The position numbers and the translations under genes were made by a program. 64,000 nt of DNA from Lytechinus pictus. Lineage: Eukaryota. This document shows, piece after piece, positions 16,401 to 57,423 of this stretch. Below the pieces are notes generated by a model. That model saw only the letters and a program-made list of their open reading frames with translations, had not been told where the DNA came from and ran no database searches. Positions within the stretch are counted from its first letter, which is position 1, and every line of letters starts with the position of its first letter. The DNA lies in assembly GCF_037042905.1 (NCBI RefSeq), contig NC_087250.1, positions 21,268,001 to 21,332,000 on the forward strand, given 5' to 3'.

Positions 16401-17295
16401 AAATTGTAAGTCTTTCCTGATAAAAAATTGATAAGATTCTTTTATATATATAGCAACACGACCACCTTTCATATTATTTCTATCAACATGAAGAAGTAAA
16501 TAACCACTGATATTAAATAAATCTGGAGATTTGTCATTTAGCCATGTTTCAGTTACACATATAATACTATATTCATATTCAACAGAAGAAAGCAATTCTT
16601 GAAAAGTATCAAAATTCTTACATAAACTCCTTGAATTTACATGAAGAATTCTGAAATGATTTTCTTGGTAAGTAATCTTATTTTTAAATTCATGGGGTAA
16701 ATAATATTGGCAAGATGACGTTGCAATGACCTCATTTAGTTCCAAATCTATATTACTATCGATCATATAATAAACATGTGAACAAACAATACTTGTATAA
16801 CATAATGATAGTAGGTTTTACGATAATAACGACTTTACTTGCATCTCTTGATAAATAAATATAGCGATGATATAATTTACAAATCGATACACGACTGGTA
16901 CGAAGGTTTTGTGAACTTTCTTGCTGATTCACATTTATATTAATAAAGTAGAAATTATGGAAAATAGATTCAAGACTGACAATCAAATAAAGTGTAAAAA
17001 GAGCATGACATGCTAGAAATATGGCACAGCGATGTGCAAGAAGACAATTACCAAAATATAAGTACAATACAAAACAAATCGTTTTGGTTGAATATATTTT
17101 GATAGACTTGCTCGACCTCAGAAAAACGGAAGAGTAAAGAAACACTCCATTTAAAAGTATTTGTTTTCAAAGTGTACATGTACGAGGAGAAGACGATCCT
17201 AAAATAGTTACTTGTATATATATTTTTAACATATGTGCAACAATGCTACATTGTAACCGTTATGTAATCGGCGTAACCAAAATAGAACTCATCTC
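13437..17295 (-). mobile_element. 5'-truncated, decayed CR1/L2-group LINE (ORF2: APE endonuclease + RT)
   Basis: Frameshifted ORFs: APE (VNSRSL, CVTETWL, GDYNID, SDHLP; 15743-16766) and RT (YRPISIL, QYGFR, DLSKAFD, GVPQGSILGPLLF; 14644-15294). The catalytic motif reads L*ADD. C-terminal pieces 13819-14601; (CAAT)n tail at 13437-13452. Confidence 0.92.
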
Positions 17296-29560: not shown

Positions 29561-30775
29561 TGAGTTGCTTTTTTGTTTTATGTGAATCATGATTGTTTTC
29601 TTCACTGATAGAAAAAGGATACTTAATTTTTTTTTTAATTCAAAAATAAAATCCATATGGTCCGCCAATAGTCGAATTATATTCATTCTGATGTTATAAT
29701 GTAAGTAACAATTTGTTGTTGATGGGGGATATATATAATTTTACACGTAGTTTCAAAATAAAACAAATCAATCAAACAAGATTTTCTTCTATAAATGATA
29801 TACCTTCATCTGTATATGGCCGCCTAAGAAGAAAATGAACAAGAAAGAAAATGAAACGGAAAGGGTGAAATGGTATATTATTTTCTGAATATTAAGTCAA
29901 ACTCTTAAAAAAAAAAATCGATTTCTGTATTAAAAATGTCAAAAAATTTGCTCGCTCGCTCGCATCTTTTTAGAACTATTGTTCCATCAGCCATTTTTGG
30001 CTCATTATGCCATTGTGAGCGTCAGACCAGTAGGCCTATAAATAATCCCAGCTTGCATATCGCGCTATTTAGTAAGATACGGAACATGATCGTGTTTTTT
30101 TTTTTTATTCCGTTTTCATAACCTATGAAAAAAAAGTTTCAGCTTATCTCCTCCATAATTTAATTGGCGAGATTCGTATCCTTTTGATTAATTTCTGGAA
30201 CGGATATCAAAATATTTTGAAATATTAAAAAAATGAAAGGAAGGAGAATGAAATATAATACAAATAATACAACTACTACTAATAACAATGATAATAATAA
30301 TAATAATGAAAAAGCAATGGTAATAATAATAATAATAATGACGTGTTTAAAAGTTGCTCCCGTATTTTGCCATCATTTTACTGTTTATCTTACGATTTGT
30401 GGAAGGAAATTTATATCAGCAGATGCAATACAACACCAGGCACCCGATGGAGTACCGTGATTTGCATTTGGAGAATAATTAGGACATATATCAGTGAGTT
30501 TCATGATGTTTTTTATCGAAATTTCATAGAAAGTTGTTATTCGAGAAGCGCGCACGATAACAAGTAGATGATACTACGCTGGCTTGATGGCAACCATTGT
30601 TACGCGCTACTTTGAGTGACGTAGAACGATGAAAGGAGATAATTATGATGGTGGAGAACTGAGATACTTTGGGAGATAAACGGCCTAGCTGAACAAACTT
30701 TTTTAAACTTTAATTGTAAAGTTCCAGGGTAACGCCAACTCTTTTCCCCGAGCCAGGGATACGGCACAATCACTC

Positions 30776-32983
30776 ATGCAAATGATGAATACAGATTTGA
30801 ATACAAACGTTAACGGCGAAAACGAGAGAACTAGCCTGCATAGTTCGCTCGCGCCCGGTATGGATTCTGTGGAGGCTCAGGCAGGATCCAGTCGTCAATC
30901 TACTACTGGACCAAAAACTTCAACAAGAAGAGAATGGAGCAGAAGAGACAATATGAATGTCATGGAATGTTATTATGAGAGCAGACCTGACCAGGAAAGA
31001 GGCTACATCAAGAGAATGTACAAGATCTGGCAAGAGAAGGGTCTTTTCCCAACATCAGAGCAAAGACTTGCAGATCAGGTACGTGTGATCAAAAGGAATG
31101 AGTTACTGACTGAAGTTGAGAGGGAAGGGATCAGACGAAATGTGTATGAACCTGTGAGAGATGAGCAGGAGGAAGTACTCAGACCGGGAAGAGAAGAGCA
31201 GACAGAAGCAACAGCTCAATTTCAAACAGAATTGGATCCAACCACTAACAGATTGGATGAAGAGCAGGAAGAGATAAAGATTATATTATTGGAGATAAAA
31301 GAGTGGGTAACACAAGGAGAGCGCCCCACCCCTCCTAATCTGAAGAGAATACCAAGAGAGAAACTGCTGATAGAAACTCAGAAAGTCAACGATGTTATGA
31401 AGTTTATCAGCTCAGACAGTATTGAGGATACCAATGATCTCATATATGCTGGAGCAGTTCTGGTAACAGAGAGGTTAGGTGTAAGAAAACAGGAGAACAC
31501 AAGGAAGCACTGCCTACCACCATGGAAAAGGAGACTTGATAATCAGATAAAGGGATGGAGGACAGACCTATCAAGACTGACAGAGATAAACCTTGGCAAA
31601 GCAGATATCAATGATTTTAAGTACCTTGAGGAGAAGTTCAGTATTAGAAGGAAAGGAAGGAAGATCGTCGTGGAGGAACTAAAACAAAGGATAACAAGCA
31701 CTACAGCAAAAGTAAAGAGGTACACCGATCGAGTGTCACAGTATAGACAGAATTCCTTGTTTGAGAACAACCAGAAGAGGTTCTACCAAGAAATAAATGG
31801 AAAGATGAAAGACGAAGTTCCACCACCAAATCCAGCTGAAGCAATTGCCTTCTGGAGCAACATTTGGAGCCAACCACACAATCACAACCAAGAAGCTATG
31901 TGGTTGAAAACAACGAAAGAGGAATGTGCAAATATAGTTGCACAGGATGATCTGACGATCAACAAAAGCAAGCTAGAAAAGATCATTAGGAAAATGGCGC
32001 CATGGAAAGCTGCCGGTCCAGACGGTGTGCAAGCTTTCTGGGTTAAAAGGTTCACAAATCTTCATGAAAGGCTGAGCATGCAAATGAACGAGATTGTCGT
32101 GAATGGTAACCCCCCTAATTGGATGACAAAAGGAAGAACGGTTCTCATCCCAAAGGATCCTACCAAAGGCAACATTCCGTCAAACTACCGTCCAATTACC
32201 TGCTTGCCGATTCTCTGGAAGTTACTGACTGGCATAATATCAGAAGAAATATATCAACACCTGGACGATCAAGCCATACTACCATGGGAACAGAAGGGAT
32301 GTAGAAAAGGAAGTAGAGGAACAAAAGAACAACTATGCATCGACAAAGGAATTATGAAAGACAGCAAGAAAAGAAAAACGAACCTCGCAATGGCATGGAT
32401 TGACTACAAGAAAGCATACGACATGGTTCCACACTCTTGGATCATCGAGTCTATGGAAATGTTAGGGGTAGCAGACAATATCAGAAGGTTCCTCATTACA
32501 AGTATGACGAGATGGAGAACTAAGTTGGAAAGTAATGGTGAAGTGCTTGGAGAGGTTGGTATCAAGAGAGGAATCTTTCAGGGAGATAGTCTATCTCCAT
32601 TGCTGTTTGTGATGGCAATGACACCATTAACTAAGGTACTCAGAAGATCCAGGCTAGGATATGAGTTCAAGAGCAAGGCAAAAATCAACCATCTATTATA
32701 CATGGACGATTTGAAGCTGTTTGGTAAGACACAAAGTGACTTGGAGTCTCTCATCAACACTGTGCGGATCTTCAGCGAAGACATCGGTATGCAGTTTGGG
32801 ATGGATAAATGTGCAATGATTACTCTCATGAGAGGTAAGCCAGCCAATGACAACAACTTCCAGATGCCGAACGGAAAAGAGATCAGATCAATCGAAGACG
32901 GTGGTAGCTATAAATATCTCGGAATATTAGAGGCAGATCAGTTGAAACATCAAGAAATGAAGAAGAAGATTGAGGCAGAGTAT
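30776..32983 (+). CDS. R4/Dong ORF, N-terminal and reverse transcriptase part (interrupted by MITE)
   Basis: Motifs WKAAGPDG, NYRPITCL, EQKGC, WIDYKKAYD, GIFQGDSLSPLLF, HLLYMDDLKL, YKYLG; no stops over 736 codons. Confidence 0.93.
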
Positions 32984-34365
32984 CAGTGGCGTAGCTAGGA
33001 TTTTTTTCACGGGGGGGCACTGGGGGGTCCTTGCTTCTTCAGGGGGGGCACCGGCCATTTTTCCGGTGTGTGTGTGTGTATGTGTCACAAGGGCGGATCC
33101 GACTTTCGCCATTAGGGGATGGGGCCCGAAATTATCTTCACCTATATCAGTAACTTCTTAGTTTTATTCTTATAGAACAACATAAACATGAAATAATCTC
33201 ATAAGCCTTATAAAAAGTGCGAGCGCGAAGCGCGAGCGATTTTTAAAAAAAAAAAACTTTCATGTATTTTTTCCTGAAAATTTAATTTTCTGGGCAATGT
33301 TATGTGTGATCCTGAACAAGATTCGTATGTAACTAGATGGTTACTGCGAACGCCAAGCGTGAACAGAAATTTTTATCAACTGTTCTAGCATTATCGAAAA
33401 GGACTGCTTAAGGACTGCTTACAGTTACCCACGAAGACGGTATATATTTCAATAATGCGAGCGCGAAGCGCGAGCAAATTTTTTGACATTCCGACCTAAA
33501 AAATTGTCTTTCTAAGCACTGTTTGTATTAATAAATGGAGTAGATATGTAACTAAATAATTGATGCGAGCGCGAAGCGCGAGAGGAAGAAATTTTAAAAT
33601 TGAGATTTTAGACCTAAAAGCGGGACACTCTATTCATATTTTGTAAATCATAAATAGAATATAGTCAATTGGGTATAATTTATAATGCGATTGTGAAGCG
33701 TGAGTAGACGATTATTGATATTCTGATGTGAAACTGGATAATTTAAGTACATTTTAAATAAAGAACATGCAGGCTATCGCGCATGTTTTAGATTTAGACC
33801 TAGAATCTGGGCATTCTGAATACATTTGTTTAATGGAACATTATGGAATACAATATGAACTTGGCAAATCAAACAATGTGACCGCGCAGCGTGAGCTTAA
33901 AATGCTGATATGTAGACCATAAAACGGGCCGATTTCACAGAGCACTTAAATTTGTAAATGAAAAAAAAATAATGAAAGCTCGATGTCCGAGCTAAAATAT
34001 GTTTTGCATATTGACTTCAAAACTTGCTCCATATCAGCCTATTGAGCAAGATATGAATCTCATCGAACAGGCAATTCTGGCGCGAAGCGCCAGCAAAAAT
34101 TTTATATAGTAACATGAAAAGATTTGTTTTTTAATTGCAAGTCTTCCCCTCACATTATTTCATTCACTCGTCTTCCTCCTCTTATTTTCCTCTTCTTTTT
34201 TTTCTTCTGTCTTTCTTCTTCTTTTCTTTTTTCTTTTCTTCTTTCTCCCTTTTTTTTTTTTTTTTTTTTGCTCTGCCAATTTTTTCTGGGGGGGCACCTG
34301 GGGGGGCACACCAAATCTCAGGGGGGGCACGTGCCCCCCCAGGCCCCCCCGTAGCTACGCCACTG
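32984..34365. mobile_element. hAT-type MITE inserted in the R4/Dong ORF
   Basis: TIRs CAGTGGCGTAGCTA / TAGCTACGCCACTG; 8-bp TSD CAGAGTAT at 32976-32983 and 34366-34373; internal GCGAGCGCGAAGCGCGAGC motifs. Confidence 0.92.
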
Positions 34366-34373
34366 CAGAGTAT

Positions 34374-35534
34374 ATCAGGAGAATTCGGAAGGTGCTCAAA
34401 TCCAAATTAAATGCTGGAAACATGGTGAAGGCTGTTAACACTTGGGCAGTAGCCCTAGTGAGATATGCTGCTGGCATAGTTGAATGGAACAAGCTTGAAC
34501 TCGAAACCCTGGACAGGAAGACAAGGAAGTTGCTAACTATGCATGGGATGTTTCACCCAAAGTCTGATGTAGATAGACTTTATGTGTCAAGAGAGAAGGG
34601 AGGACGTGGTCTGACTGGAATAGAGGAGACTGTAAGATATGAGGAACAAAGCCTATACTGCTATATTGAAGGCCAGATGGATAGCATCATGGCGGCAGTC
34701 AAAGACTCGATGAGGAAAGGAAAGGATGTGACAGCGAAACAGCTGAAGGCTGATCAAAGGAAAATGAGACTGGAAGGATGGAAAGAGAAGGTGATGCACG
34801 GGCAGCATTTAAGACAGACAGAGGAGTTTGCTGGACCAGAGAGTTGGCAGTGGCTGAAACGAGGAAGTTTAAAGAAGGAGACGGAAAGTATGCTAGTTGC
34901 TGCTCAGGACCAAGCAATTAGAACAAATTACCGAAGAGCCAAAGTTGAAAAGGAGCATACATCTCCCTCATGTAGAATGTGTCATGACAAAGACGAAACG
35001 GTGTCTCATCTGGTGAGTGAATGCAGCAAAATGGCACAGACAGAGTACAAAGGAAGGCACGACAGAGTAGCAGCTGCGGTTCATTGGGGTCTGGCCAAGA
35101 AGTACCATTTACCTCATGCGGAAAAATGGTACGAACATCGGGCAGAGCCTGTAGTAGAGAACGACGATGTAAAACTTTTATGGGATTTTAATATCCAGAC
35201 AGACAAGGTCATTGAAGCTAGACGACCAGACATCGTTCTCTTAAAGAAGAAGGAAAAGGAATGTCTCATCATAGATATTGCGATTCCGGGAGACTGCAGA
35301 GCTTGGCGTAAAGAGGAGGAAAAGATACAGAAGTATAAGGATCTGGCATGGGAGCTGAGAAGGATATGGAAGGTGAAGACGAAGGTGGTACCAATAGTCA
35401 TCGGAGCCTTAGGAACAGTGACAACAAGACACAGAAGCTTTCTGGCTGTTCTAGGAGTCGAGGTGTCCTTTGAAACGATACAGAAGGCAAGCTTGCTTGG
35501 AACAGCTAATATCTTACGGAAGGTCTTGAATTAG
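34374..35534 (+). CDS. R4/Dong ORF, C-terminal part: CCHC zinc knuckle and restriction-like (REL) endonuclease
   Basis: CRMC...H...C, RHD, RPDIV...IIDIAIP, KIQKY motifs; joins the upstream part in frame (EAEY|IRRIRKVLKSKLN) after removing the MITE and one TSD copy. Confidence 0.92.
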   Translation: MRRIRKVLKSKLNAGNMVKAVNTWAVALVRYAAGIVEWNKLELETLDRKTRKLLTMHGMFHPKSDVDRLYVSREKGGRGLTGIEETVRYEEQSLYCYIEGQMDSIMAAVKDSMRKGKDVTAKQLKADQRKMRLEGWKEKVMHGQHLRQTEEFAGPESWQWLKRGSLKKETESMLVAAQDQAIRTNYRRAKVEKEHTSPSCRMCHDKDETVSHLVSECSKMAQTEYKGRHDRVAAAVHWGLAKKYHLPHAEKWYEHRAEPVVENDDVKLLWDFNIQTDKVIEARRPDIVLLKKKEKECLIIDIAIPGDCRAWRKEEEKIQKYKDLAWELRRIWKVKTKVVPIVIGALGTVTTRHRSFLAVLGVEVSFETIQKASLLGTANILRKVLN

Positions 35535-35672
35535 AAAGAGAAGTGAACAATGAGAAGAGGACCCATTTGATAGAATATATAACAATAACCCTAGATTTCT
35601 GGAAGAAGTCCGGTTACTGTTTAATATACCAACAGAACATCAAGTTGTGGACAATGGAAATAATAATAATAA

Positions 35673-42149: not shown

Positions 42150-42740
42150 TATATATATATTCGCCATTGTCATCTTGCAGTCATGGCAACGCGTCTTTAG
42201 ATGCGTCTTTTACAGTGCGCTTCCTCCATCTTCAGCGCATTGATTTCTTTGAAAGGTGAGGTTCACAATCCGTATGCCCATAAACAGACGTGTTTTTCAC
42301 GACTGTTTCAGAAACGGATTTAGAATCTTCTTTTTTTTGTCACATCATGGGCACTGACGAAGAGTGTGACTTTACCTTTCATTTTTGAGAGCAGTGTTCT
42401 GTTTAAAATCTACGAATTCATTTAAACGGCATTTATTAAACCATTTATTTATATATTGTATATAGATATATATATATATATATATATATATTATGATGCG
42501 CAGATTAGGCCCTAATGTTTTATACATCGTTTCGGCTTCGTAATCATTAATGGGGGAGGAACAAACCTGGACGATTTTTTTTCATTTGTTAACAGTGCAT
42601 GTCAAGGCTAGGCGTTTCATCATAATAATTTCGTTATTTGCCTAACAATACTATTTACGAATTTGGTTGCATTGTACCTTGAGGGCTTTTTAAATGAAAT
42701 CAAAGGATGGATATTTTTCCTTCAATATTTCAGAAGCAAA

Positions 42741-42822
42741 ATGAAACTGCACCTATCTGACTTCTCTTTTTTTATAAAATTCCTTTCTGTCTGGCTGGTT
42801 CTTTTGATCCAAAGCTTTACAG
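42741..42822 (+). CDS. Possible signal-peptide exon (MKLHLSDFSFFIKFLSVWLVLLIQSFT), copy 1
   Basis: Acceptor-like TTTCAG 7 nt upstream, aaaATG, hydrophobic 27-aa peptide, phase-1 AG|GT; paralog at 51956-52038. Confidence 0.35.
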
Positions 42823-44071
42823 GTTTATCGATGAAAAGGAGAAAGAGTAAACATGAGAGAAGTGGAGAGACAAGGACAGATTTGGGGGCTGGAAAAACAC
42901 CTGGAGTACCGAGGGGAAAGCTTAGACGTTAATGTTGACACGAACGATTATGGTTACATATTTTGTCCTGATTTGTATGTCTTCTGTAGTATCATATTTA
43001 AGTATTTAAATGACATTAAGCATGCATACCCAGGTTCGGCACTGATTTTGTAACTAATGGAAATCAATAAAAATCGTGTTTTGCCAGTAAACCTATTTGA
43101 GTTTAATCGATGGTGTGGTTCGGATTCTATAAAAGTAGAGACCCTAGAACTTTACTGCTGCATCCAATATGATATTAAATATAAACACCTGGATGATCAT
43201 AACCTGGGAAGCAGGATTGGTGTTGGGTATTTTGTACACCACAAGCAGCACCCCTGAAAATATGGTTGGTATGCTAAAATGTAGAGATTTGACACTAATC
43301 TTCTTCATTCCTGGACAGAAAAAACTTTATTATCTAATTACATTATTTTTATTTTTCAAATCGCCCAGATATTTAACTATATTTTATTCATCACCTAATC
43401 ATTATCAAAAACATGCATACAATAATTAAAATATAGCATCATCATCATTATCGTAATTTCCACCATTATCCTTAGAGTAATCATTATTATCATCATCCTA
43501 ATCTTCATGATCATTATTGTCGTCTTAATCTTCGTCTTCGTCGTCGAATCGACCAATACCACCGTCATCTTTTCATCACTACGATATTTTCTCAATCAAT
43601 ACGCAGATGCTTTCTACAACGCACCAATTCGTTTGAAAATGCAAATCGAATCACTCCGACAGTATAGAGAAAAAAATACGCTCTATATAAGCTTATTTTC
43701 AAATGTTTACTTTCTAGAGACCAAATTATTGTTTTAGCTAATACAGAAAACTTTCCCTTTCGACACATTGCTGGTTTTATCTTTTCAGAAGAAGCCATGT
43801 AATGCAGTTCACTGTTGAAGAGTTTGGGTTGATTTCTTTGGCAGTTTGTCTGGTTTGAAAGAATGCTTTCATTGTGAAGGCTAGATCTATTCAGGTTAGA
43901 CATTTTCATCTTTCTAAAGATCATTTGAAAATTACATTGCGCCCTTTTCAATCCTGCTTGTATTATTTTCTCAAAGCATACCGTTCCGGTTAACATGATT
44001 AAAGTATATAGAAACACATGATACTACTACTACTACTATTACTACTGCTGCTGCTGCTCCTGCTAGTATTT

Positions 44072-44131
<60 letters not shown>

Positions 44132-45205
44132 TAACTACTATTACTATAACTACTAATATTGCTACTACTAATAATGATAATTATTAATAACAATAATAAT
44201 ACTAATAATATTAACTTTAAAATCAACATTATAAGCAAACAAAATTATAACAACATCAACGATTTTCATAATAATGATGTCGATGATGATAATGATGATG
44301 ATAACAAGAACAATAATACTAATAAAAATACCATGGAATGGGGAGTTGATTTGTTTATATTTTATTTTTATCGTAATGGGCTCACATGGTAACCACCTGA
44401 ACTCGATAAGGTTTGTTTTCAGACAAGCTAAACGGGATTATTAAAGGGGAATGAATATAAGGGAGAAAAAAAAACTGTAGATAGATTCATATAAACGATG
44501 AAAATTACAATTTCATTTTTTTACATTGCCAGACGAAAGCTTACCAATCATTATATTCTATTTCTTTGCACGTTTATGCTGTTATATATCTAAGTTTATA
44601 ATGTTTTATATAAATGACTATATATGATCTTCAGCACATTGATTTTTTCCTTTATAATAGTCATGGTTTGTCTTCAATCAAATGTATAATTTTTATTTAG
44701 CCCAGCTAAATGCATACTTATATGAAAACCAAATGAGACAGTTAAGTAAATAATATTTCGATATTTGATTATCTTTGCACTTTCTTCACAATCCATCTTG
44801 ACGAAAGTCTGAATATTCTAATGAAATTGATTAAAGTCATAATTATTATAGTATATTTAAACATAAAGGGGGTATGACTGCTGACGGCATCGCCGTACGC
44901 GGTTAATTGGTAGATTTTTCCCAATAAAGTCCACTCAGACCAGCGTTTATTAAGTCTGAAGTTGTCAAACCGATCGTTAAGCACGAGTCACATCGCTCTT
45001 ACCATAGTAGCAACTACAATTTTGCACACGAAGTGCACGTCTAACGTTCCCGTCGTGGTGGCGAAAACTCCCTACTCAGACGATGTACAATTATAATTAG
45101 TGATCTCGATATTCAAATGTGCATAACCTTCTCATTGTCAAGCTTACTAAAACTTTTTTTTAAATTTATTTTTTCCTCTATTTTTAAAGAGCTAACATGC
45201 TCTAA

Positions 45206-48200
45206 TAGTCCAGTCAATCTAGCCAGAATAGGGGGGTAACCCACCACTAATTGCAACACGAGATATTCCACTGAAATGCTTTCCAGGAAGGTCCCCTAAA
45301 CAACATACTAAAAGTCCCAAGAAATCCAAGCTTTGGAAATTTATGAAATGTGCATATTATGCAAATTAGCCATGAAAAATTAGAAAAAGAAGGGAAATAA
45401 TCCAAAGATTACAAATTAAATGTCCAAAACAATTTAATTTGAATGGAAATTCATGATAAATAACTAAATTCAATGCTTTTAATCAAAAGTGCAAACATTT
45501 CTACCTCATTTGCATATTATGCAAATAAGCATCCTTATATGGAAAATATGTCAAGATATTGTGATTTTTCTCATATAGACTACTAAAAAAAAAAATCATT
45601 ATTGTTGACATTAATATGCTAATATATCACTAAGCATGAGAATTCATCCCAATGCCTGCAAATTAATTTGCATATTATGCAAATTAGCCATTAAAAAAAT
45701 AGAAAATGAGGAAATTAATCCAAAGATGACAAATCAAATGTCCACAGCAATTAATTTTGAACAAAAGTTCATGATGAATAAATAAGTTCAATGTCTTTAT
45801 TAAAAAAAATCTAGCAAATCTGCCTCATTTGCATATTATGCAAAGAAGTATCCTTATATGGAAAATGTCAAGAAATTTTGATTTTTATCACATTGACTGC
45901 AGTGAAAACGTTTCAGTTTTTCAAATTAATATACTGCTATCACTAAGCATTCAAATGTATCCTTAGTATGATTTATATTCAAGGAAAAATACTGGAAATA
46001 TGTTCTTCGCTTCCTAAGCCGCGTTGTTAGTCTGACAAGATGATGGGATTGGCAAGAACAAAAGCACAAAATTTGAATTGGTGTGTAGTTTGTTAAAGTT
46101 GACAACCCTTTCTTATTATGGATGGGAACGACTTAGACTTTCTTGAAATCTCACCGTATAAGCATGATAAAGGGAGGCCAGGAAAAGCAAACTTATGGCA
46201 GGTAAGATCTGATGAGTAGTCTCATTAAGAAGTGTAGCAGAGATTTCGTCTGGCCTAGTAGCTTCATGCAGGTTGTTTTCTTTAACAATTTCTTCAGTAT
46301 GTTATCTGGCCATATCTGGGTCAGGGCTGGGTCCCAGGACTTGTAGATCAGCGTCATCATCATCATCATCATCATCAGTGGTGATTAAAGACTAAAAATC
46401 TTTGCCTTCCTTTAATAATGATATTCCAATGTAGTCATAGCTATTGATATTAAGGGCTCCCAACACATTAATTGTTACAGCCTGGATCATTGTCAATCCG
46501 GTCAACAAATTATGTATTATAGGCTTGTCTACAAAGTACAAACCCTCTAATGGTCCTCTTTAATGCATTGTAGCAATTCTGAGCTTTACCTTACTGATGC
46601 TTTTGGAGCTCTAAAATGTGCAAGCCTTTCTAGCCTTTCTCTAAAACTCTTGACATCTTCCGACACAACTTATGTCAATTTTCTCATTGAGGCAACTTGT
46701 GTCGGAAGAAGACATGGTTAACGGTGTGTTCTTGTTAGAGTCCTCTTGATTGGCATTCAGTCTCCTATGCTCGACTTGTCGGATTTCAGTACAGAGAGTC
46801 ATGAGAGTTGTATGATTGTCCAAAGTACATCTGCATGACACTATTAAAGTCAGCATTCCTCCAGATAATTTCTAAAAGGTTTATTCCTCTGGATAACCAC
46901 ACAGTATACCCATGAGTAACACATTGTGGCAAATAAATCCTGGAAGTGGTACACACTGTCTAATCAATGTTGGATGGTATTTGATGGTGATGTTCAGGGT
47001 GTTCCATTTTGTTGTGTCCTCTTGTTGGAAAGGCAATAATCTGGCTTATAACCTCCATCTGGTTTGTTCATTGTCTCACTGAGGAATTTCTGTTTACCAT
47101 CAATATCAGGAAATTAATATTATTATTTGCATACGACTTACTTAGAAACTATAGCTTTAATATATGGAGATGGTTGCCATAGGAGATTTATCAAAGAGGA
47201 AAGAAAAGAAAATGGATGCTTATTCATGAAGCAGCAACTGGATTCAGCAAGAACGTCTAATCACGATTCCTGTATCTGAGAAAGATGCCTATAATGCACT
47301 TTAAGCCTTCATCATGAATTTATGAATGGCCTTCATGTCGCTCGTATAGGCAAATGTCCATTGTTACTCTTATTAAGCATGCCCAGATATCTTGTGATCC
47401 AAGCAAGTACTCATATTCACCACCATGACAAGTGATGATGATGATGATAAAGATGATGATGATGATGGGTTCTTGTAAAGCGCCGGTATCCGCCTCAGCT
47501 GGGCGCTCATGGCGCTTGCTAAAAAATAGGAAATATCTCACAAATTTCAATGTCTTCAAACAGTGCTTAGGATCATCATTCAGTTCAAGTACTGTCCTAG
47601 TAATGCTACAATTGAGTTATTCTTGGGATAATGTTGGAGTGGGGAACAGAAGGTCTTCGGGTAAGACTCAAAAGTTGATTGGGTCTCTGCTCTCCTGAAA
47701 AATTGGGGAAGGCTATTCCACAGCTTTGATCCAGAAATGTAGAAGGCTCTGTCAGTGACTGTCACCCCAGGTTGTGTGGCTGAGAGATTCCCTCAGCAAT
47801 GCTTGATCTGCTGATCTGAGACTGTGTGTTGGTCTATGCTGAGATAAGAGCTCTGATATGTAGGGTGGAGATTTATCATTAAGCGCTTTAAATACAAGGA
47901 CCCCAAGTTTATAAGCTAAGTGGTGTGCTACAAGGACCAAATATTCGAAGCTAATGGGCTTTTATTTGTACGGGTGTGACATCTTGTGCTGATCACTTGG
48001 CAATCCAGGAACTTGCTAGCGTGGACTATATACTCGCAAGAAACGCAAAGTCTCTACAACGTCAAGAAGAGAGCAAGACTTGGATGGAAATAATGAAGCA
48101 TTCGAGCAGTGGGATCCATGTAGAATGGACTCATCATTGTACAATATGAGTGGAGTAACTGCTCGTGACATAAGTCAATATCAACCAAGCAAGAAGTGTA

Positions 48201-49280
48201 GGGAATGTCATCATGGTTAATATACATAATCTACCTGGAATTTTGGAGGAAAGTATCACGTATGTTTTCCTTGAATATTTATAATATGTCGGATGCTTAT
48301 TTGCATAATATGTAAATTACACTTCAGATATTAAGCTGATTATTAATGTATTTGCCATTCTTAGTGATCACATCATATTGATCTAGACTAAAATGTTTTC
48401 ATAACTGGTTTGGGGAGAAAAATCAAAATTACTGGATTTTTTTCCATATGAAGATGCTCATAAATATGCAAATGAGGTAGATTTATTTACGATTTTTATT
48501 TAAAAAATAAATAAATTTGTAAAACTTATCATGGGCTTCAGTTCAATTCGTATTGTTTTCTGCACTTGATTTCCAATATTTGGATTATTTTCATTATTTG
48601 TAATTAATTATGGCTAATTTGCATAAAATGCAAATTTTGTGATTTTCCTATATGCTTGTATATTTAAGGACTTTTAATATGGTGTTTAGGAAACCTTCCT
48701 GTAAGGTATTGCCATATTCCAATTTCAATAGATAATCTACTTGCAATTTTGAGGGATGTATCAACAGTGAGTTTTCTTGAATATCTATAACATGTTAGAT
48801 ACTTTTATTTGCATAATATGCAAATTACACTACATACACTAAGCTGAATACAAATGTATTCAACGTCCTTAGTGATAGCAGCATGTAAATTTCAACATCA
48901 ATGAAATTTCCAAGCAGTTAATGAGAGAAAAATCACAATACCTTGACATTTTTCCATATAAGGATGCTTATTTGCATATTATGCAAATGAGGTAGATTTT
49001 TTTGCACTTTTGACAAAAAACATTGAATACAGTTATTTATCATGAATTTTCGCTCAAATTGAATTGTTTTGGACACTTAATTTGTAATCTTTGGGCTATT
49101 TTCCTTATTTTTCTAACTTTATATGGCTAATTTGCATAATATGCAAATTTCATAAATTTCCACTGCTTGGATTTCTTGGGACTTTTAGTATGTTGTTTAG
49201 GGGACCTTCCTTGAAAGCATTGCAGTGGAATATCTCGTGTTGCAATTAGTGGTGGGTCAAACCCTATATTGACTGGACTA
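45206..49280. mobile_element. Academ-like DNA transposon remnant with long repetitive TIRs
   Basis: Termini TAGTCCAGTCAAT / ATTGACTGGACTA; 3-bp TSD TAA; ~750-bp inverted arms rich in TTTGCATATTATGCAAA; absent from the paralogous backbone near 40085. Confidence 0.7.
47440..48000 (-). mobile_element. 3' fragment of an L2-group LINE
   Basis: YKLGVLVFKALN..SPPYISELL...SLRS and DRAF..SGSKLWNSLP; (GAT)n tail near 47433-47467. Confidence 0.8.
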
Positions 49281-49443
49281 TAACAGTCTAATGGTTTCAT
49301 TCACCTTTAGCGCACTAGGGTTTTTTTTACTCATGTGGATTGCGGATGAATTGTTATTATTCTATTATCTTATTTAGATTATAAGCAACACGATTCACAA
49401 CATACCACTCAATTAAGAATTATAGTAGTTATTATTCCATCGC

Positions 49444-49510
49444 TATATATATATATTTGTGTGTGTGAGGGTGTGTGCGTGTGTGTGTATGTATATATAT
49501 ATACACACAC

Positions 49511-49599
<89 letters not shown>

Positions 49600-49621
49600 T
49601 GTGTGTGTGTGTGTGTGTGTG
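49444..49621. repeat. (TA)n/(TG)n compound microsatellite
   Basis: Direct reading. Confidence 0.95.
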
Positions 49622-49767
49622 AAGTTATACATGTACAACAGCTTTGGCAACTCTTTTTATTTTAAATATTGTAAAGAAATGAATGAAGAGAACAATGGTA
49701 GGTGTAGTATAAATCAAGGTTACCCAGAGCTATCTACCCTTTGGAAAAATTGGTGATGCCGAAAAAA

Positions 49768-49839
49768 TGTCTTTGCCGGGAATCGAACCCGGGCCCCCAG
49801 CTTTGAACGCCGGTGCCTTAACCACTAGACCACAGAGGT
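49768..49839 (-). pseudogene. tRNA-like copy (anticodon TCA) with damaged acceptor stem
   Basis: Same D, anticodon and T arms as the forward copies; acceptor ACCTCTG/CAAAGAC has 3 mismatches, two at the inversion junction. Confidence 0.75.
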
Positions 49840-50017
49840 ATGGTGTATGGTATACGTGTACTGTATAAAAGCAATAGCTTTGATCCAGCTGAGGCATGGC
49901 GGCTTGTCATTGTTCAAAACCCACCTTCACCCGACAAAGGAAATTATAATTGGTATAGTGTCGAAAATCTGTCTATCTGACGGTCAATCGGATCGGGGTC
50001 GCCCTAGCCACTAACCT

Positions 50018-50089
50018 GTCTCTGTGGTCTAGTGGTTAAGGCACCGGCGTTCAAAGCTGGGGGCCCGGGTTCGATTCCCGGCAGAGACA
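50018..50089 (+). tRNA. tRNA-like gene, anticodon TCA (opal-suppressor-type, not tRNA-Sec architecture)
   Basis: Acceptor GTCTCTG/CAGAGAC, D arm GTCT/AGGC, anticodon arm CCGGC-GTTCAAA-GCTGG, 4-nt variable loop, T arm CCGGG-TTCGATT-CCCGG, discriminator A, then T6 terminator. Confidence 0.7.
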
Positions 50090-50424
50090 TTTTTTCGGCA
50101 TCACCAATTTTTCCAAAGGGTAAATAGCTCTGGGGAACCTTGATTTAAGCTACGCCTACCATTGTTCTCTTCATTCATTTCTTTACAATATTTAGAATAA
50201 AAAGAGTTGCCAAAGCTGTTGTACATGTATAACTTCACACATTTGTATACTTTCTCCCATACGTGTACTGTATCAAAGCAATAGCTTTGATCCAGCTGAG
50301 GCATGGCGGCTTGTCATTGTTCAAAACCCACCTTCACCCGACAAAGGAAATTATAATTGGTATAGTGTCGAAAATCTGTCTATCTGACGGTCAATCGGAT
50401 CGGGGTCGCCCTAGCCACTAACCT

Positions 50425-50496
50425 GTCTCTGTGGTCTAGTGGTTAAGGCACCGGCGTTCAAAGCTGGGGGCCCGGGTTCGATTCCCGGCAGAGACA
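50425..50496 (+). tRNA. tRNA-like gene, anticodon TCA (identical to 50018-50089)
   Basis: Identical cloverleaf and T6 terminator. Confidence 0.7.
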
Positions 50497-50831
50497 TTTT
50501 TTCGGCATCACCAATTTTTCCAAAGGGTAAATAGCTCTGGGGAACCTTGATTTAAGCTACGCCTACCATTGTTCTCTTCATTCATTTCTTTACAATATTT
50601 AGAATAAAAAGAGTTGCCAAAGCTGTTGTACATGTATAACTTCACACATTTGTATACTTTCTCCCATACGTGTACTGTATCAAAGCAATAGCTTTGATCC
50701 AGCTGAGGCATGGCGGCTTGTCATTGTTCAAAACCCACCTTCACCCGACAAAGGAAATTATAATTGGTATTGTGTCGAAAATCTGTCTATCTGACGGTCA
50801 ATCAGATCGGGGTCGACCTAGCCACTAACAC

Positions 50832-50903
50832 GTCTCTGTGGTCTAGTGGTTAAGGCACCGGCGTTAAAAGCTGGGGGCTCGGGTTCGATTCCCGGCAGAG
50901 ACA
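50832..50903 (+). tRNA. tRNA-like gene variant, anticodon TAA
   Basis: Loop GTTAAAA; one C>T change in the T stem gives a U-G wobble; T6 terminator kept. Confidence 0.6.
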
Positions 50904-51117
50904 TTTTTTCGGCATCACCAATTTTTCCAAAGGGTAGATAGCTCTGGAGAACCTTGATTTAAGCTACGCCTACCATTGTTCTCTTCATTCATTTCTTTAC
51001 AATATATATATATATATATATATATTGCGCAGAGTAGGCCTAGATGTTTTACACATCGTTTCGGCCTCGTAATCATTAAAGGGGGAACAAACATGCACGA
51101 TACGAGGCTGTGATAAT

Positions 51118-52435: not shown

Positions 52436-55400
52436 GGGGGCGTTTCATCAAACAATTAGTCGGTGGTTTTCTCCGACTAAATGTGATTTTCACCGACTAA
52501 TTTCATTTTCACCGACAATTTTGCCATCACCGACTAAATTCCATTTCATGAAAATTTGTCGGTGATTTTCTCCGACAAATTATTGGAAACCACCGACTAA
52601 TTTTGTCGGTGGCCTTCACCTACCGACAAAACTTATTTTCACCGACTAATCCAATTTTCACCGACTAATCAGCCTTTTGAGGGCCTTTGCAGCTAAAATC
52701 GATCAATTTCAGTTGATTTTGAATATAAAATTTTGATAAATTGCTTATTTTTCATTTCATTGAGAAAATTCAAAGAAAATGTATTTATTTTTAGTCAATG
52801 ACAAATAAAAAGTAGACATTTCATGAATAATATTTTCATCTTTAAAACTATATTATATCAATCAATACATAGGAAACATCTTCAAATGTACACATTTTTT
52901 CAAACATAATTTTCTTTAACCCAAATAAATCATTGTGCATTTTTTAATCAATAATGTCTGATAATGTCTGAAAATGCGACCTCATTGACTTTTGTACAAG
53001 TTTTTTCAATGTTCATTAGTGTTGTTGGTGTTGCTGCTGCTGTTGTCATCGTGATTGCTGGAATTGCTGGGTGTTTTTGCTGCTCTTGGTGTTGTGGGTG
53101 TGGTTGTTGCATCTCCTGGTGCAATTAGTTATTTTTGCTACTGATGTTGCTCAAGGTGTTGCCTGTGTGGTTGCTGTTGTCATCGCTTCTACTGCTGCTG
53201 TTTACGAGTGTGGCTGTTGCATCTCCTGATGCATCTATTGATGTTGTCGCTTGTGTTGTTGCTTGTATGATTGCTTGTTAGAATCCTTGCTGTTGGCTTT
53301 GTTTCTACTGTCGTTGTTGCTACTGCTGTTGATGTTTACCACTGTGGTTGTTGCATCTCTTGATGAAGTTATTTATGTTGCGCCCGATGTTCCCTGCATG
53401 GTTGTTGGAGCTCCTGCTGCTGTTGATGTTGTCGGTGTGGTTGTTGCATCTCTTACTGCAGTTGTAGTTTCAGCTGCTGATGCTGTTGTTGCTCCTGCTG
53501 CTGTCCATGTTCATTGAAGTAACTGAAATGGATTTAATTTATAGAGCATGTGATATTTTATTAATAAAGATATCAATTTCCATCATTATTGATATCAGTC
53601 ATTTATTCTTAATTTAATTATCATTGTTAAAACTTACATTTTTTTATTTCTAATGTTTGAAACAAGAACTTTAAGTTCTAAATGGTTAAAATATTGTCAC
53701 CAAAGCCTTATTAAACAATGAAAACAAAAAAGTTAATAACAAAGAAATGCATAAGAAAATGATTAAAATTTCCTCTTTTTTTATACACAATTGATTTTAA
53801 TGACTTGGGTTTTTCTCATTGGTTTACCAAAGAAAGGGAGTCAAAATCCAAAATTATCACATTTGGTCTTTATTTCTTGAGCCAAATGCTGATTTCATGC
53901 AAGAGTGATGTTATCATATTAAAAAAAAAAAAAAAAACATCAGGAACAGCAGCATGATTTCTGAAGCGAGTGCACAATCAACAGGCAAGATCCTGAGGCA
54001 CCCCCCCCCCTACCAAGATCATTTGAATTAATGAGGTTTCATGACTGCTTTTGTAGGCATTACATTTATACAGGCCTACAAGAGATATAATTTTTTTTTT
54101 TTTTTTTTTGGGGGGGGGTAATCTTCCAGTGTTACTCCCATACAAAGCAGATGGTGATGAGGCGGGGGGGGGGGTCTAATAGGAATGCAGAACAATGGAA
54201 CATTCATTTACTACTTTGGCAATAGAAAGCAAGTCACACCATCTAGCATTGATTGATATTGTCCAATAAATATCACCATTAATCAATTAAGCATCTAAGC
54301 ACTTATAGATGTCATTGTTTTCAAATATTTGAGTAGACCAAATAAAGAAGAGAGCAGTACCAGTAATTTAATATTTTTTTTTAATGTGACTTTACTTTCT
54401 TCGCCAAAGTGAGGCAGTCATAATTAAGTGTGTTTTAACTTACAAGTGACATCACATTTCCTGCCTTCTTGTCTGGCTCTCCTAAACCTTCAACCATTTA
54501 TACTTGTGTAACTTTGTATCTCATGTCTGTCTGAAAAGTTTGGTTGAAGCCTCCACCTGAAGGAAAAATAGTATTGAAATAACTCATTAAAATATTTGCC
54601 ATAATCTGGTATTTCTTCTCACATGTATATGTACATGTCTAAAAACAGGAAATAAAACATCTTTTGATTACCAGGTTTCATATAGAAGGGGGTTAATAAA
54701 GGGTTCAAGTTTTTATTATGTTAATAAAAAATACAAACAATAGTAAATGACATATGCTCTGGCTGAGAAACTTAAAAAGTGAAATTATTCCTCACAATGT
54801 AGCTTGTATGTACATACACATGAGCAAGTAGTGCTAAATGGATTGAGGGGTGAGAGCAGGGGCTCCGGAAACCGGGGGGGGGGTGCATGTTAGCTGCAGG
54901 GTCAGCGGAACGGATTTTACAGTGAGCGGGCTGACCATGCATAACCAGATGGTCATTTCATATTTTTCAGCTCCCGCATTGTTTTCCAAAACCATGTACA
55001 AAAATGTAAAATTGACCATCTGCTTATGATTTTTTGCATTGGTCAGCCCCCCCCCCCCCCACTTTCGGCTCAGCCCCCTCACTTTCAAAACCGTTCTGCT
55101 GACCCTGCAGCTAACATGCAAAATATATTGAATCTATTATGTCTTTCATGCTTATGTAATGTTTGCATTTCAAACTGACTTTAAATAGAAAATCTGGTCA
55201 CAGTCCGATTTCATTGTCATTGATGTGGGTTTTTATGATTTAACATTCTGCAACCAAAACAATATCCTTCATTATTTTTTAATCATTATCGCATTTTACT
55301 AGTCTACATGTTACCTGTGGTTGCATTTCAATCTCAGTATTTCTTCACCCATTGCCAAATCTTCTGTCACATGTTCATCAGATTGGCCGCTGGCACATTC

Positions 55401-57423
55401 CTTGCTGTAGTAGACCAGTCAGAGCCTTGCTTTCTAGTTCCAGATCCGTCTTCTTCTGCATACTGTTCAAATGTCCATAGTCTGAAATTAAAATATTAAT
55501 AATATCACATTGTTATACATGTAGCAAAGAAAATATGTAGATTTACAGTGATCATTGAAAAATACTGCACTTTCAATGAATATTGTTGACATTTCCTAAA
55601 GGGGAATGATCGAATATACCAATCATTTTTCTTCTTTTATTATCCTGAAATTTATAGAATTTACCAACAATCGGTCAACAATTTATCCTTGTTAATTCAT
55701 ATAATTTTCAATTGATTATAAACAAGACGGTAATTAACACATTAACCATACAAAATAGTAAAACAGCTTTTTCAATAATTTTTTTTTTAATTCAAAAATA
55801 AAAACAAAAGTTTTTTTCTAACTCAATAGCGCTTGGATACCTTGCCGGTTAAAAGCCACGATCAAATTAATAAAAAATATGAATAGGCTCCTAATTCATA
55901 ACTGCAGCAAATTGCATCCCCATCAAACTGTCAACTATTTCTGGACTGTGACCTTTGTTCAATGGAACTTTAATATGAGATTCAAGGCAGAAAAATACTT
56001 GGGATTGATGAGATCCATTCCATATTCTCCTATATTTTTTTCTAATGAAGAGACCTTTAACCTTTACATGCTATTTAAGGTTAGGTACGACAGTATTTTT
56101 CAAAAAATAGATTAAGAGACATTATCAACAATAATTTAATTTATTTACCCCAATAACACCGATGCTATTGCAGATTCATGCTAAATAGTAATTTGTCTAA
56201 AAAATTGACTTAGAAAAATAAAAGCAAAACAAACTTCATAATCGCACACAAATGAAGAGCATTATTTCGTCTCCCCCAAATTGGATGATCAATCTTTTTT
56301 TTAAAAGGGAGCTATGCAATGGCTCATTTCACTTGGGTGCGCAAAGTCAAAGATAATTTAAGATAGATCTAGGCCTAGTACGGCCATGGGCCGGGTGCAC
56401 TATTTAAAACTTAGATCTAATAATTTTTTATATCTAGATTTTAATTTTTATTGGGTGTGAACGCACCTCTGCCACAATCGCATCACCCCCCCCCCCCCCC
56501 GAATCCTCGCCAGCTGTCGAGAGCCTTCACTTCATTCGACTTGTGACTTGCTAAGGCTAAGCCTACATTAATAGTTGAGAACATCCACTTTACAAATTTA
56601 CCACTCACACTATTAATTACCATGTGATTTAGCTCCTGTTCAATTCCAATATCTGTAACACAGAATTAGGATGGCCCCATTGGATATGTGTGCATTTACA
56701 ATTGCACACGCTGGTTTGCCTGGTGATCAAGGATATCTCCGACCACACCGAGCAACAAAATTATTCCAAAACCAAAGGAAATGAAAAAATATGATTTGCA
56801 ACATAGAATGACATAAAGGTAGAACAATATAAAGAATTATCTTTGCAAAATTTATAAAATTGCAGCCATGTGCGGATCATAAAAACGTGACAGCCGTGAG
56901 CCGTGTCGTTAGTTTGGACCTGAGATAGTTCTACAGACACAGAAACACGGGTATGGGACGAGACTGGATTTTGTACTGTCAAGTTCACCGATCGTATCGA
57001 CAGGGGTCCTGCCAGAAGATCCTCTTTTCTTGTAATTCATTTGATAATCACGCACAACGAATAATTCAATCACCTTACATACAATATGAAGGATATTTTG
57101 AAGGGTTTTACTTACGGTAAAATCCTCATTCACCTCTACGAGGACCTTCGCTTCTTCTCATTTCTTCGTTTCATTTCAAATGGTCGCGGCGAAAACATCA
57201 ACCAATTTTACATCTTTTTCACGACTTTGGGAGTGGGCGTGGCCTAATTAGTCAGCGAACCTCGTTCAAGACGATTTGTAAAATAAAAATTCACTGACAA
57301 TAGTCAGAGAAGCTCCGAGAGTTTGATGAAACGAATTTTTGTCAGCGCTGACTAAATTGTCAGCGCTGACAATTTTAGTCAGCGCTGACAGTTGTCGGAC
57401 GAAAATATTGATGAAACACCCCC
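52436..57423. mobile_element. PIF/Harbinger element (~5 kb) with decayed internal gene
   Basis: TIRs GGGGGCGTTTCATCAA / TTGATGAAACACCCCC; CTG TSD; empty site preserved in the paralog near 43185 (AAACACCTGGATGATCAT); subterminal CACCGAC and GCTGAC repeats. Confidence 0.88.
53020..57180 (-). pseudogene. Possible decayed multi-exon Myb/SANT (MADF)-like accessory gene of the Harbinger element
   Basis: Exon-like blocks with AG/GT borders at ~57117-57180, ~55315-55481 (frameshifted KKTGSG...W.YY) and ~54444-54557, plus a CAA/CAG-rich block at 53020-53520. Confidence 0.35.

Follow-up and report, generated by a model that had tools for sequence, protein, structure and literature searches.

A dispersed 406-base repeat with an internal tRNA-like module in Lytechinus pictus, likely copied through RNA by Neptune-type Penelope-like elements

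This article describes a repeat locus in a stretch of 64,000 nucleotides of Lytechinus pictus DNA (contig NC_087250.1, positions 21,268,001 to 21,332,000; hereafter the window). A tandem array at 49852-51005 (period 407, 2.8 copies, 98% matches in TRF) lies beside an inverted arm at 49616-49837 (222 nt, 97% identity), and the arrangement of about 2.8 head-to-tail units plus an inverted partial copy, put forward in an initial annotation made from the letters alone, is thereby confirmed. The locus holds four tRNA-like modules, with anticodon TCA in three of them and TAA in the last direct unit, that score 45-61 bits against Rfam RF00005. On the left, unit sequence passes into (TG)11 at 49600-49621 and from there into (TA)n; on the right, TTTACAAT runs into (TA)n at ~51002-51025. 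Judging from the sequence of both ends, the two junctions are microhomologies, as had been claimed. The features are collected in Table 1.

Table 1. Features of the repeat locus and of its paralogous backbone (window coordinates)
Feature	Position	Strand	Basis
Older paralogous backbone: (TA)n without element, then sequence 81-84% like the element's right flank	42446..43192	+	
(TA)n target tract, left side	49488..49599	.	TRF and sequence
(CA)11 run extending the element's own CACAC end (3' site B)	49600..49621	-	Sequence; analogous runs in an autonomous Neptune-type family
Inverted arm (222 nt), 5'-truncated, covering the unit between tRNA position 3 and 3' site B	49616..49837	-	
tRNA-like module (TCA) of the inverted arm, without the first two acceptor bases	49768..49839	-	45 bits
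Junction filler made of two short stretches of unit sequence in inverted orientation, adjoining the direct-arm start	49838..49851	.	Sequence
Direct unit 1, without its first 9 nt	49852..50249	+	
tRNA-like module 1: TCA, short variable loop, G32, A and B boxes	50018..50089	+	Rfam RF00005, 60.9 bits
T6 Pol III terminator-like run immediately 3' of module 1	50090..50095	+	Sequence
Direct unit 2, post-insertion recombinant; not in the duplicate locus	50250..50656	+	
Antisense arm: degenerate inverted copy of tRNA and trailer, skipping the anticodon arm; predicted rod	50353..50424	+	Fold z = -7.3, alignment
tRNA-like module 2 (TCA)	50425..50496	+	Rfam RF00005
Direct unit 3, terminating at 3' site A	50657..51005	+	
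tRNA-like module 3: TCA to TAA after segmental duplication, T-stem mismatch; decaying	50832..50903	+	
3' region weakly collinear with the 3' end of a TA-targeting Neptune-type PLE	50930..51005	+	
(TA)n target tract, right side	51002..51025	.	Sequence

T6 runs equivalent to that of module 1 follow modules 2 and 3 (50497-50502 and 50904-50909), and each unit contains one antisense arm. From their sequences, the junction filler at 49838..49851 appears to have arisen by a slippage-like event, and the 3' region at 50930..51005 may begin at a dead half hammerhead.

The history of the locus can be read from a segmental duplicate 290 kb away (G000:C6:21608076), which has the same inverted arm and junctions, 1.85 units, and independent mutations. 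Three rare changes are common to window units 1 and 2 and also present in the first unit of the duplicate, while unit 2 has neither the position-25 change of unit 1 nor the position-115 change of the last unit. Unit 2 is thus a crossover product formed after insertion, taking its 5' part from the last unit and its 3' part from unit 1, with the exchange between unit positions 26 and 114. The original insertion was one inverted arm plus 1.85 units, and the TAA anticodon of module 3 postdates the segmental duplication. The near-identity of the units had been taken as a sign of recent insertion, a conclusion that falls away since the likeness of units 1 and 2 is due to this recombination; measured against the family majority sequence, each piece of the original insertion has 5-10 differing sites (~1-3%). 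A proposed empty site at 42446-42491 holds on one side only: its right flank aligns with that of the element (81-84%), but the adjacent left flanks are unalignable, and left-side homology between the backbone at 42446 and the element locus resumes only ~2.4 kb upstream. That an insertion took place is therefore established by the genome-wide family, in place of the half-shown empty site.

The window element is one copy of a 406-base, non-coding, dispersed repeat with more than 1,700 genomic copies. A 31-base tRNA-core pattern has at least 1,756 exact matches in the genome (control 0), and the anticodon is TCA in 99 of the first 100 matches listed. The genome-wide search with the unit itself (110 matches from 39 of 1,470 candidates scored) hit many contigs, full-length matches being 95-100% identical. 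Relatives beyond this genome numbered 0 in two metagenome scans.

Orientations, truncation points, and flanks were tabulated for 68 insertions at 57 loci, leaving out 12 loci (duplicates, the paralogue of the window, and arrays cut by an edge), and the table shows two 3' sites, scattered 5' ends, inverted arms, and TA flanks. Site A accounts for 43/100 of the 3' ends and site B for 46/100 (together 89/100), whereas the 36 5' ends are scattered across unit positions 1-379; the element thus has pLTR-like partial tandems with variable 5' truncation and a fixed 3' end. A terminal tail occurs at one end only, with sites A and B lying ~50 nt apart compared with ~50-60 nt in coding Penelope-like element (PLE) families. 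The insertions show no fixed 5' termini and no TIRs. In 32 of the 68, an inverted, 5'-truncated copy stands on the 5' side of the direct one, and 22 contain at least 1.5 units. TA runs stand at or near 36/43 site A ends, 41/46 site B ends, and 24/36 5' ends; four more site B ends carry CA followed by TA, and one CA alone. One array of ~44 units, on C2, probably grew by unequal exchange. The table upholds the proposal that the element is dispersed and non-autonomous, inserts as partial tandems and inverted copies in the Penelope-like manner, and favours microsatellites.

Searches for GIY-YIG and RT domains recovered several PLE families in this genome, with the RT followed by a C-terminal endonuclease (EN), a DKG motif, and a linker Zn-finger-like motif; intact open reading frames span 896-1026 aa. 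Among 13 ORFs inspected, the EN is C-terminal wherever the domain was reached, with DKG in 11 and DKA in 0, and by the motifs of PMC8557442 these families would be classed as Neptune-type. Most of them have (TA)n ends, a minimal hammerhead-like motif, and two alternative ends ~50-60 nt apart. In one family (L031), runs of CA and then TA follow the CAC-ending site, so the window (CA)n is a product of the element end and not a target. The run had been regarded as a target or anchor, yet it separates the element end from (TA)n, which is the actual target; it was likely added at or after insertion.

The last ~135 nt of the unit are collinear with the end of the L031 family, from the second half of the hammerhead through both ends. 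This alignment is weak: 4-13 of 1000 dinucleotide shuffles reach its score, and it is the best of 10 PLE 3' ends tried. Comparison with PLE 3' ends, GIY-YIG loci, and PLE loci revealed no clear sequence common to the unit and an autonomous partner. With blastn, the unit gave only 13-bp matches to 16 GIY-YIG loci; at 48 PLE loci it matched copies that had inserted separately into TA tracts or flanks, and no shared sequence. Gaps of 1-3 kb between copies contained no partner ORF, one of them being filled by a Poseidon-type PLE fragment. Copies next to PLE 3' ends show no excess over the TA-tract background, and physical linkage to a PLE family was discarded as an argument: 5/30 and 4/30 PLE-end loci were positive against 3/7 TA tracts from 200 kb of arbitrary DNA, a small control whose three positives all lie in one region. 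The reading of the element as a non-autonomous PLE is supported.

One copy speaks for the form in which the element moves. Of the 16 substitutions at locus L060, read on the tRNA-sense strand, 12 are A>G, and none of these is preceded by G (p ~3e-9 against a background share of 10.8% among 254 rows). Clusters of A>G changes lacking a 5' G are the signature of ADAR editing. The hyper-editing of this single copy points indirectly to an RNA intermediate and indicates the polarity of that RNA. The A>G skew of the family as a whole loses significance when L060 is left out (p=0.08).

As to the template, diagnostic sites mismatch in 5.1% of comparisons within insertions (61/1,198) and in 23.6% between insertions, and 8 of the 29 rare alleles common to all units of an insertion span inverted and direct arms. 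That the units of an insertion have one haplotype in common agrees with a circular or multi-pass template, although a linear transcript of a homogeneous array would give the same result. A repeatedly read circle has been proposed as the template for PLEs and retrozymes (PMC4209133, PMC7229834, 10.64898/2026.07.22.740005). Among 98 breakpoints no pile-up is significant (tRNA 5' end 7, about 4 being expected there; anticodon loop 2; 3' end 4), so a simple linear Pol III transcript is not the template. The hammerhead core CUGANGA is absent from both strands of the unit, and no Rfam ribozyme matches it at E up to 10. The unit is strongly self-paired (z = -7.3, 0/100 shuffles as stable).

The tRNA-like module is 72 nt long, has a short variable loop, and does not adopt the tRNA-Sec fold (RF01852); the host tRNA-Sec scores 76.9 bits at two other places. 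It is identical to host Gly-TCC, Glu-TTC, and Glu-CTC tRNA genes at 49-51 of 72 positions, and a single parent was not retained as a conclusion because Gly (50/72) and Glu (49-51/72) do not separate. The acceptor and anticodon stems are remodelled relative to all candidate parents and still fully paired, the acceptor stem being unlike that of host Gly or Glu. G32 occurs in 172/178 rows, whereas a C or T fills this position in each of the 11 host anticodon-loop types fetched; it may be the leftover of a one-base shift against Glu-CTC. A cloverleaf, Pol III boxes, and a UCA anticodon are present in a module that has neither a canonical anticodon loop (pyrimidine 32) nor the synthetase identity set.

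The anticodon itself has changed over time. Ten of the 19 copies without A36 have TCC, and 21 of 47 TCC-pattern matches are element copies. Mean identity is 90.6% for TCC rows (n=26, fetched on purpose) and 97.2% for TCA rows (n=143). The TCC rows have linked diagnostic changes in common and represent an older subfamily that is dispersed as well, so the family was mobile before TCA arose. The A and B boxes and the terminator are unchanged between the old and young subfamilies. From old to young, five changes improve rod pairing, and several young variants break pairs. A lower mutation density in the tRNA (0.64 vs 0.88%) was set aside as a sign of selection: loci were chosen by a match to the tRNA core, and its conservation is thus partly built into the sampling. 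We consider it likely that the module helps to transcribe the repeat or to process its RNA and does not read stop codons.

The explanation that we hold to be reasonably probable is that of a 406-bp repeat residing in (TA)n, likely RNA-copied by Neptune-type PLEs, whose tRNA likely acts as promoter and processing signal and not as a UGA decoder. A multi-unit locus would be transcribed either by Pol III, starting from upstream tRNA boxes and passing T6, or by Pol II read-through, giving RNA longer than a unit. This RNA would be reduced to a unit-length, rod-folded, and probably circular form, the tRNA module replacing the lost ribozyme. The PLE GIY-YIG endonuclease would nick (TA)n, the nick would anneal to one of two AT-rich sites in the unit, and the RT would copy round the template for 0.2-5 units, with a second priming event yielding the inverted arm. 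Arrays would later expand or contract by unequal exchange, as happened with window unit 2, and TCA would have replaced TCC within a subfamily, at a loop position that is exposed.

Each unit also contains T6 and T5 runs, which would normally halt Pol III before the observed 3' ends. A SINE-like role of the tRNA was rejected, as the 5' end is not fixed and T6 lies upstream of the 3' ends. By analogy, a Cassandra-like role, in which Pol III transcription passes from one repeat into the next, fits the partial tandem of the element; such a role requires terminator read-through and an extra step placing sites A and B on the template.

It is possible, though we rate it as unlikely, that the tRNA is a pure passenger in a Neptune pLTR derivative spreading only by Pol II read-through and rod folding. 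The module would then be a captured tRNA or SINE head, and three observations sit well with this: breakpoints ignore the tRNA, T6 would cut Pol III transcripts short, and the cloverleaf is fully masked in folds of the unit and dimer. In the predicted unit and dimer RNA, the D and T sides are taken up by pairing with the antisense arm upstream, and the anticodon hairpin alone stays free; cloverleaf pair probabilities are ~0, and the rod is predicted at -143.7 kcal/mol as against -120.8 for a forced cloverleaf. A mere passenger, however, would not be expected to have stems that differ from all candidate parent tRNAs and are yet fully paired, nor boxes and a terminator that remain unchanged from old to young copies (an observation owed in part to tRNA-core sampling).

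More doubtful is a specific version of the processing role, namely a ribozyme-free, retrozyme-like element that hijacks tRNA splicing, with TSEN cutting the RNA and RtcB circularizing a unit-length intron. Based on predicted folds, Pol III would start at the tRNA of unit n and continue to that of unit n+1. The antisense arm would sequester the two inner tRNA halves while sparing the anticodon stems, and the outer halves would form a pre-tRNA with the whole 406-nt unit as its intron. G32 would supply a G32-C35 proximal pair, which a tandem Gly-TCC tRNA (C32-C35) would lack; TSEN cleavage at 37/38 and RtcB closure would yield a circle for the Penelope RT. Position 36 would lie in a bulge, free to drift from TCC to TCA, and the spliced UCA tRNA would be a by-product that may cause low-level stop read-through. 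In the modelled transcript from tRNA n to tRNA n+1, the outer halves do fold as a cloverleaf, and a symmetric bulge-helix-bulge closed by G32-C35 can be drawn. Two of its features hold by construction, the Watson-Crick proximal pair between G32 and C35 of the following unit and the 3-nt bulge at 37/38. According to Schmidt et al. (10.1101/497545), a G-C proximal pair splices and C-C does not, while unpaired middle positions inhibit splicing. Positions 2-3 of the middle helix are U-U here, the forced fold lies 7.8 kcal/mol above the MFE, and it vanishes when an upstream leader is included. The hybrid acceptor stem was dropped as evidence of design, as it also forms in 19/20 shuffled-spacer controls.

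To a DNA-level mobile repeat, be it a Helitron-like rolling circle or a dispersing satellite, we assign a very small probability. The 44-unit array and the unequal exchange seen in the window would suit it, but it does not account for the strand-specific A>G hyper-editing, nor for the two-end geometry and CA-then-TA tails that the element shares with coding PLEs, and the insertions have no fixed 5' termini and no TIRs.

According to a speculation in the initial annotation, which we now regard as scarcely probable, an autonomous PLE of the Naiad clade with in-frame TGA codons would receive its UGA-decoding tRNA from the element. In its favour are an intact cloverleaf, A and B boxes, its own T6, and TCA with A36-A37-A38 in more than 1,700 copies. 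The isolated Pol III transcript is predicted to fold largely as a cloverleaf, and low-level UGA suppression by such an isolated module transcript may occur, judging from folding. Naiads themselves are possible in this genome, as the PLE searches scored the best 150 of 567 and the best 150 of 713 candidates. The PLE ORFs recovered, however, all have an RT followed by a C-terminal GIY-YIG and lend no support to a Naiad link, and no recurrent TGA was seen among the 300 scored matches (Neptune-type ORFs only). In the best 150 RT matches scored, TGA was found in 9/150 and TAA/TAG in 16/150; for the best 150 EN matches the figures were 8/150 and 21/150. Four EN TGAs that were inspected align with Arg and not Cys, and the L031 TGA was rejected as recoding because two copies carry stops at different codons.

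What Craig et al. 2021 (PMC8557442) say of Naiads points in the same direction. There, (CA)n is the target of Chlamys and (TA)n that of Naiad, and Naiad UGAs align with Cys, accompany SECIS elements, and occur in clams and spiders, being read as selenocysteine via SECIS and the host tRNA-Sec; in one supplement file of that paper, echinoderms are mentioned three times, at least two of these being Hydra rows. Further points against the proposed self-supplied decoder are the sporadic nature of TGA, the TCC of the older dispersed subfamily, the presence of G32 in 0/11 host anticodon-loop types fetched, the decay of copies (e.g., TAA in the window), and a separate host tRNA-Sec located elsewhere.

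That the locus is an assembly artefact or a single-locus array has a negligible chance, for although units 1 and 2 are almost identical, the family is genome-wide, and the duplicate 290 kb off keeps the same junctions with independent mutations, which makes an artefact very unlikely.

Among known systems, the animal non-LTR retrozymes come first (Cervera and de la Pena 2020, PMC7229834; Li, Clavereau and Pollet 2026, 10.64898/2026.07.22.740005). They likewise consist of non-coding units of 150-450 bp, occur from dimers to long multimers, and are highly self-paired; they are proposed to be non-autonomous PLE derivatives copied from RtcB-closed circles. Our element differs from them in having no hammerhead core on either strand and in having a whole tRNA module plus terminator, and its circles are only putative. 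It works like a retrozyme without falling under the retrozyme definition, and the retrozyme/non-autonomous PLE class gains a member with a whole tRNA gene instead of a hammerhead. A literature search that omitted most subscription papers, repeat databases, and bioRxiv supplements found no tRNA-bearing PLE derivative. The present analysis adds an editing signature, a test for one haplotype per insertion, the recognition of the middle unit as a recombinant, an origin for the CA run, and weak homology to a Neptune 3' end.

MRC1, other Chlamys derivatives, and the Neptune/Naiad pattern, as described by Craig et al. 2021 (PMC8557442), have in common with our element the pLTR-like partial tandems, the inverted 5'-truncated copy, the tail at one end, and the microsatellite target. 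In contrast, the tail is ~50 nt in the element and 30-40 bp in that text, the element is only weakly 3'-similar to any autonomous family found, and a tRNA module is not described in the part consulted. The element offers a small natural substrate for questions of PLE replication: whether the template is circular or linear, how the two 3' ends come about, and how the inverted arm arises.

The TRIMp3 elements Cassandra, Helenus, and Ajax are, as described by Kojima 2024 (PMC10886601), also non-autonomous, with a small-RNA gene in the repeat that is read as a Pol III promoter; in Cassandra, transcription runs from one repeat into the next. According to the same text, however, these elements have LTRs, a PBS, 5-bp TSDs, and the machinery of LTR retrotransposons, whereas ours has PLE-type ends. 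It is the PLE counterpart of tRNA-bearing SINEs and TRIMs, and it lets us expect well over a thousand false 'Sec/suppressor' calls in the tRNA annotation of this genome. tRNA-derived SINEs have tRNA-derived A and B boxes and depend on the RT of another element. In our element, by contrast, the tRNA is internal and directly followed by T6, there is no fixed 5' end at the tRNA, and insertion takes place as tandem and inverted copies.

Finally, if the tRNA-splicing route were true, the element would be a transposon using TSEN to make its replicating circle. It resembles tricRNA biogenesis by TSEN and RtcB (Schmidt et al., 10.1101/497545) in that two of its modules in tandem allow a pre-tRNA to be drawn whose intron is one unit long, with a G-C proximal pair and bulges of 3 nt. 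That process, however, is known for host tRNA introns only, and the likeness of our element, with U-U at its middle helix positions, is drawn from a predicted fold.

The element lies within a segmental duplication, in which window positions 27307-59973 match G000:C6:21595000-21613000 with 94-98% identity at a spacing of 290 kb. Several insertions (window 30341-35651, 45210-49278, and 52436-57423) distinguish the two segments. The 4.1-kb inverted-repeat element, which we take to be PIF/Harbinger-like, contains no long open frame. Coordinates of this and further features are collected in the table.

Coordinates of mobile elements and element copies (L, genomic loci)
Feature	Position	Strand	Remarks
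4.1-kb element, long terminal inverted repeats and TAA target duplication	window 45205-49281		missing at the duplicate locus
Non-LTR retrotransposon-like RT frame, two pieces (763 and 473 aa, stop to stop)	window 30707-32998 and 34113-35534	+	within stretch missing from the duplicate
LINE-like endonuclease and RT fragments	window 13819-16817	-	frameshifted
420-bp insert, terminal inverted repeats of ~30 bp	L009:1918-2337		interrupts one unit of a 7-unit array, C18
A-to-G hyper-edited element copy	L060:2515-2734 (G000:C1:652814-653033)		
Poseidon-type PLE fragment, terminal repeats bearing hammerhead, in (TA)n	L048:2840-4500		broken by another insertion

The majority of the edited sites in the hyper-edited copy are unpaired in the monomer rod, and editing therefore likely took place in a longer duplex, which could be an inverted-arm hairpin.

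In the tRNA-like module of the second direct unit, the anticodon loop (window 50449-50457 region) has come to resemble a second B box through the replacement of TCC by TCA, judged by the B-box consensus. A separate SINE-like family carries a Glu-type tRNA head (L168, L170, L177, L182, and L184), and a genuine tRNA-Sec gene is present at two places, namely L311 (G000:C2:54020026) and L312 (G000:C25:889015).

Among Penelope-like elements (PLEs), young families of the Neptune type number at least six in this genome and carry minimal hammerhead-like motifs (L037, L216-L228, L236-L265, and L317-L346). Most of them target (TA)n, whereas the ends of the L045/L226 family lie at AT-rich sites other than (TA)n.
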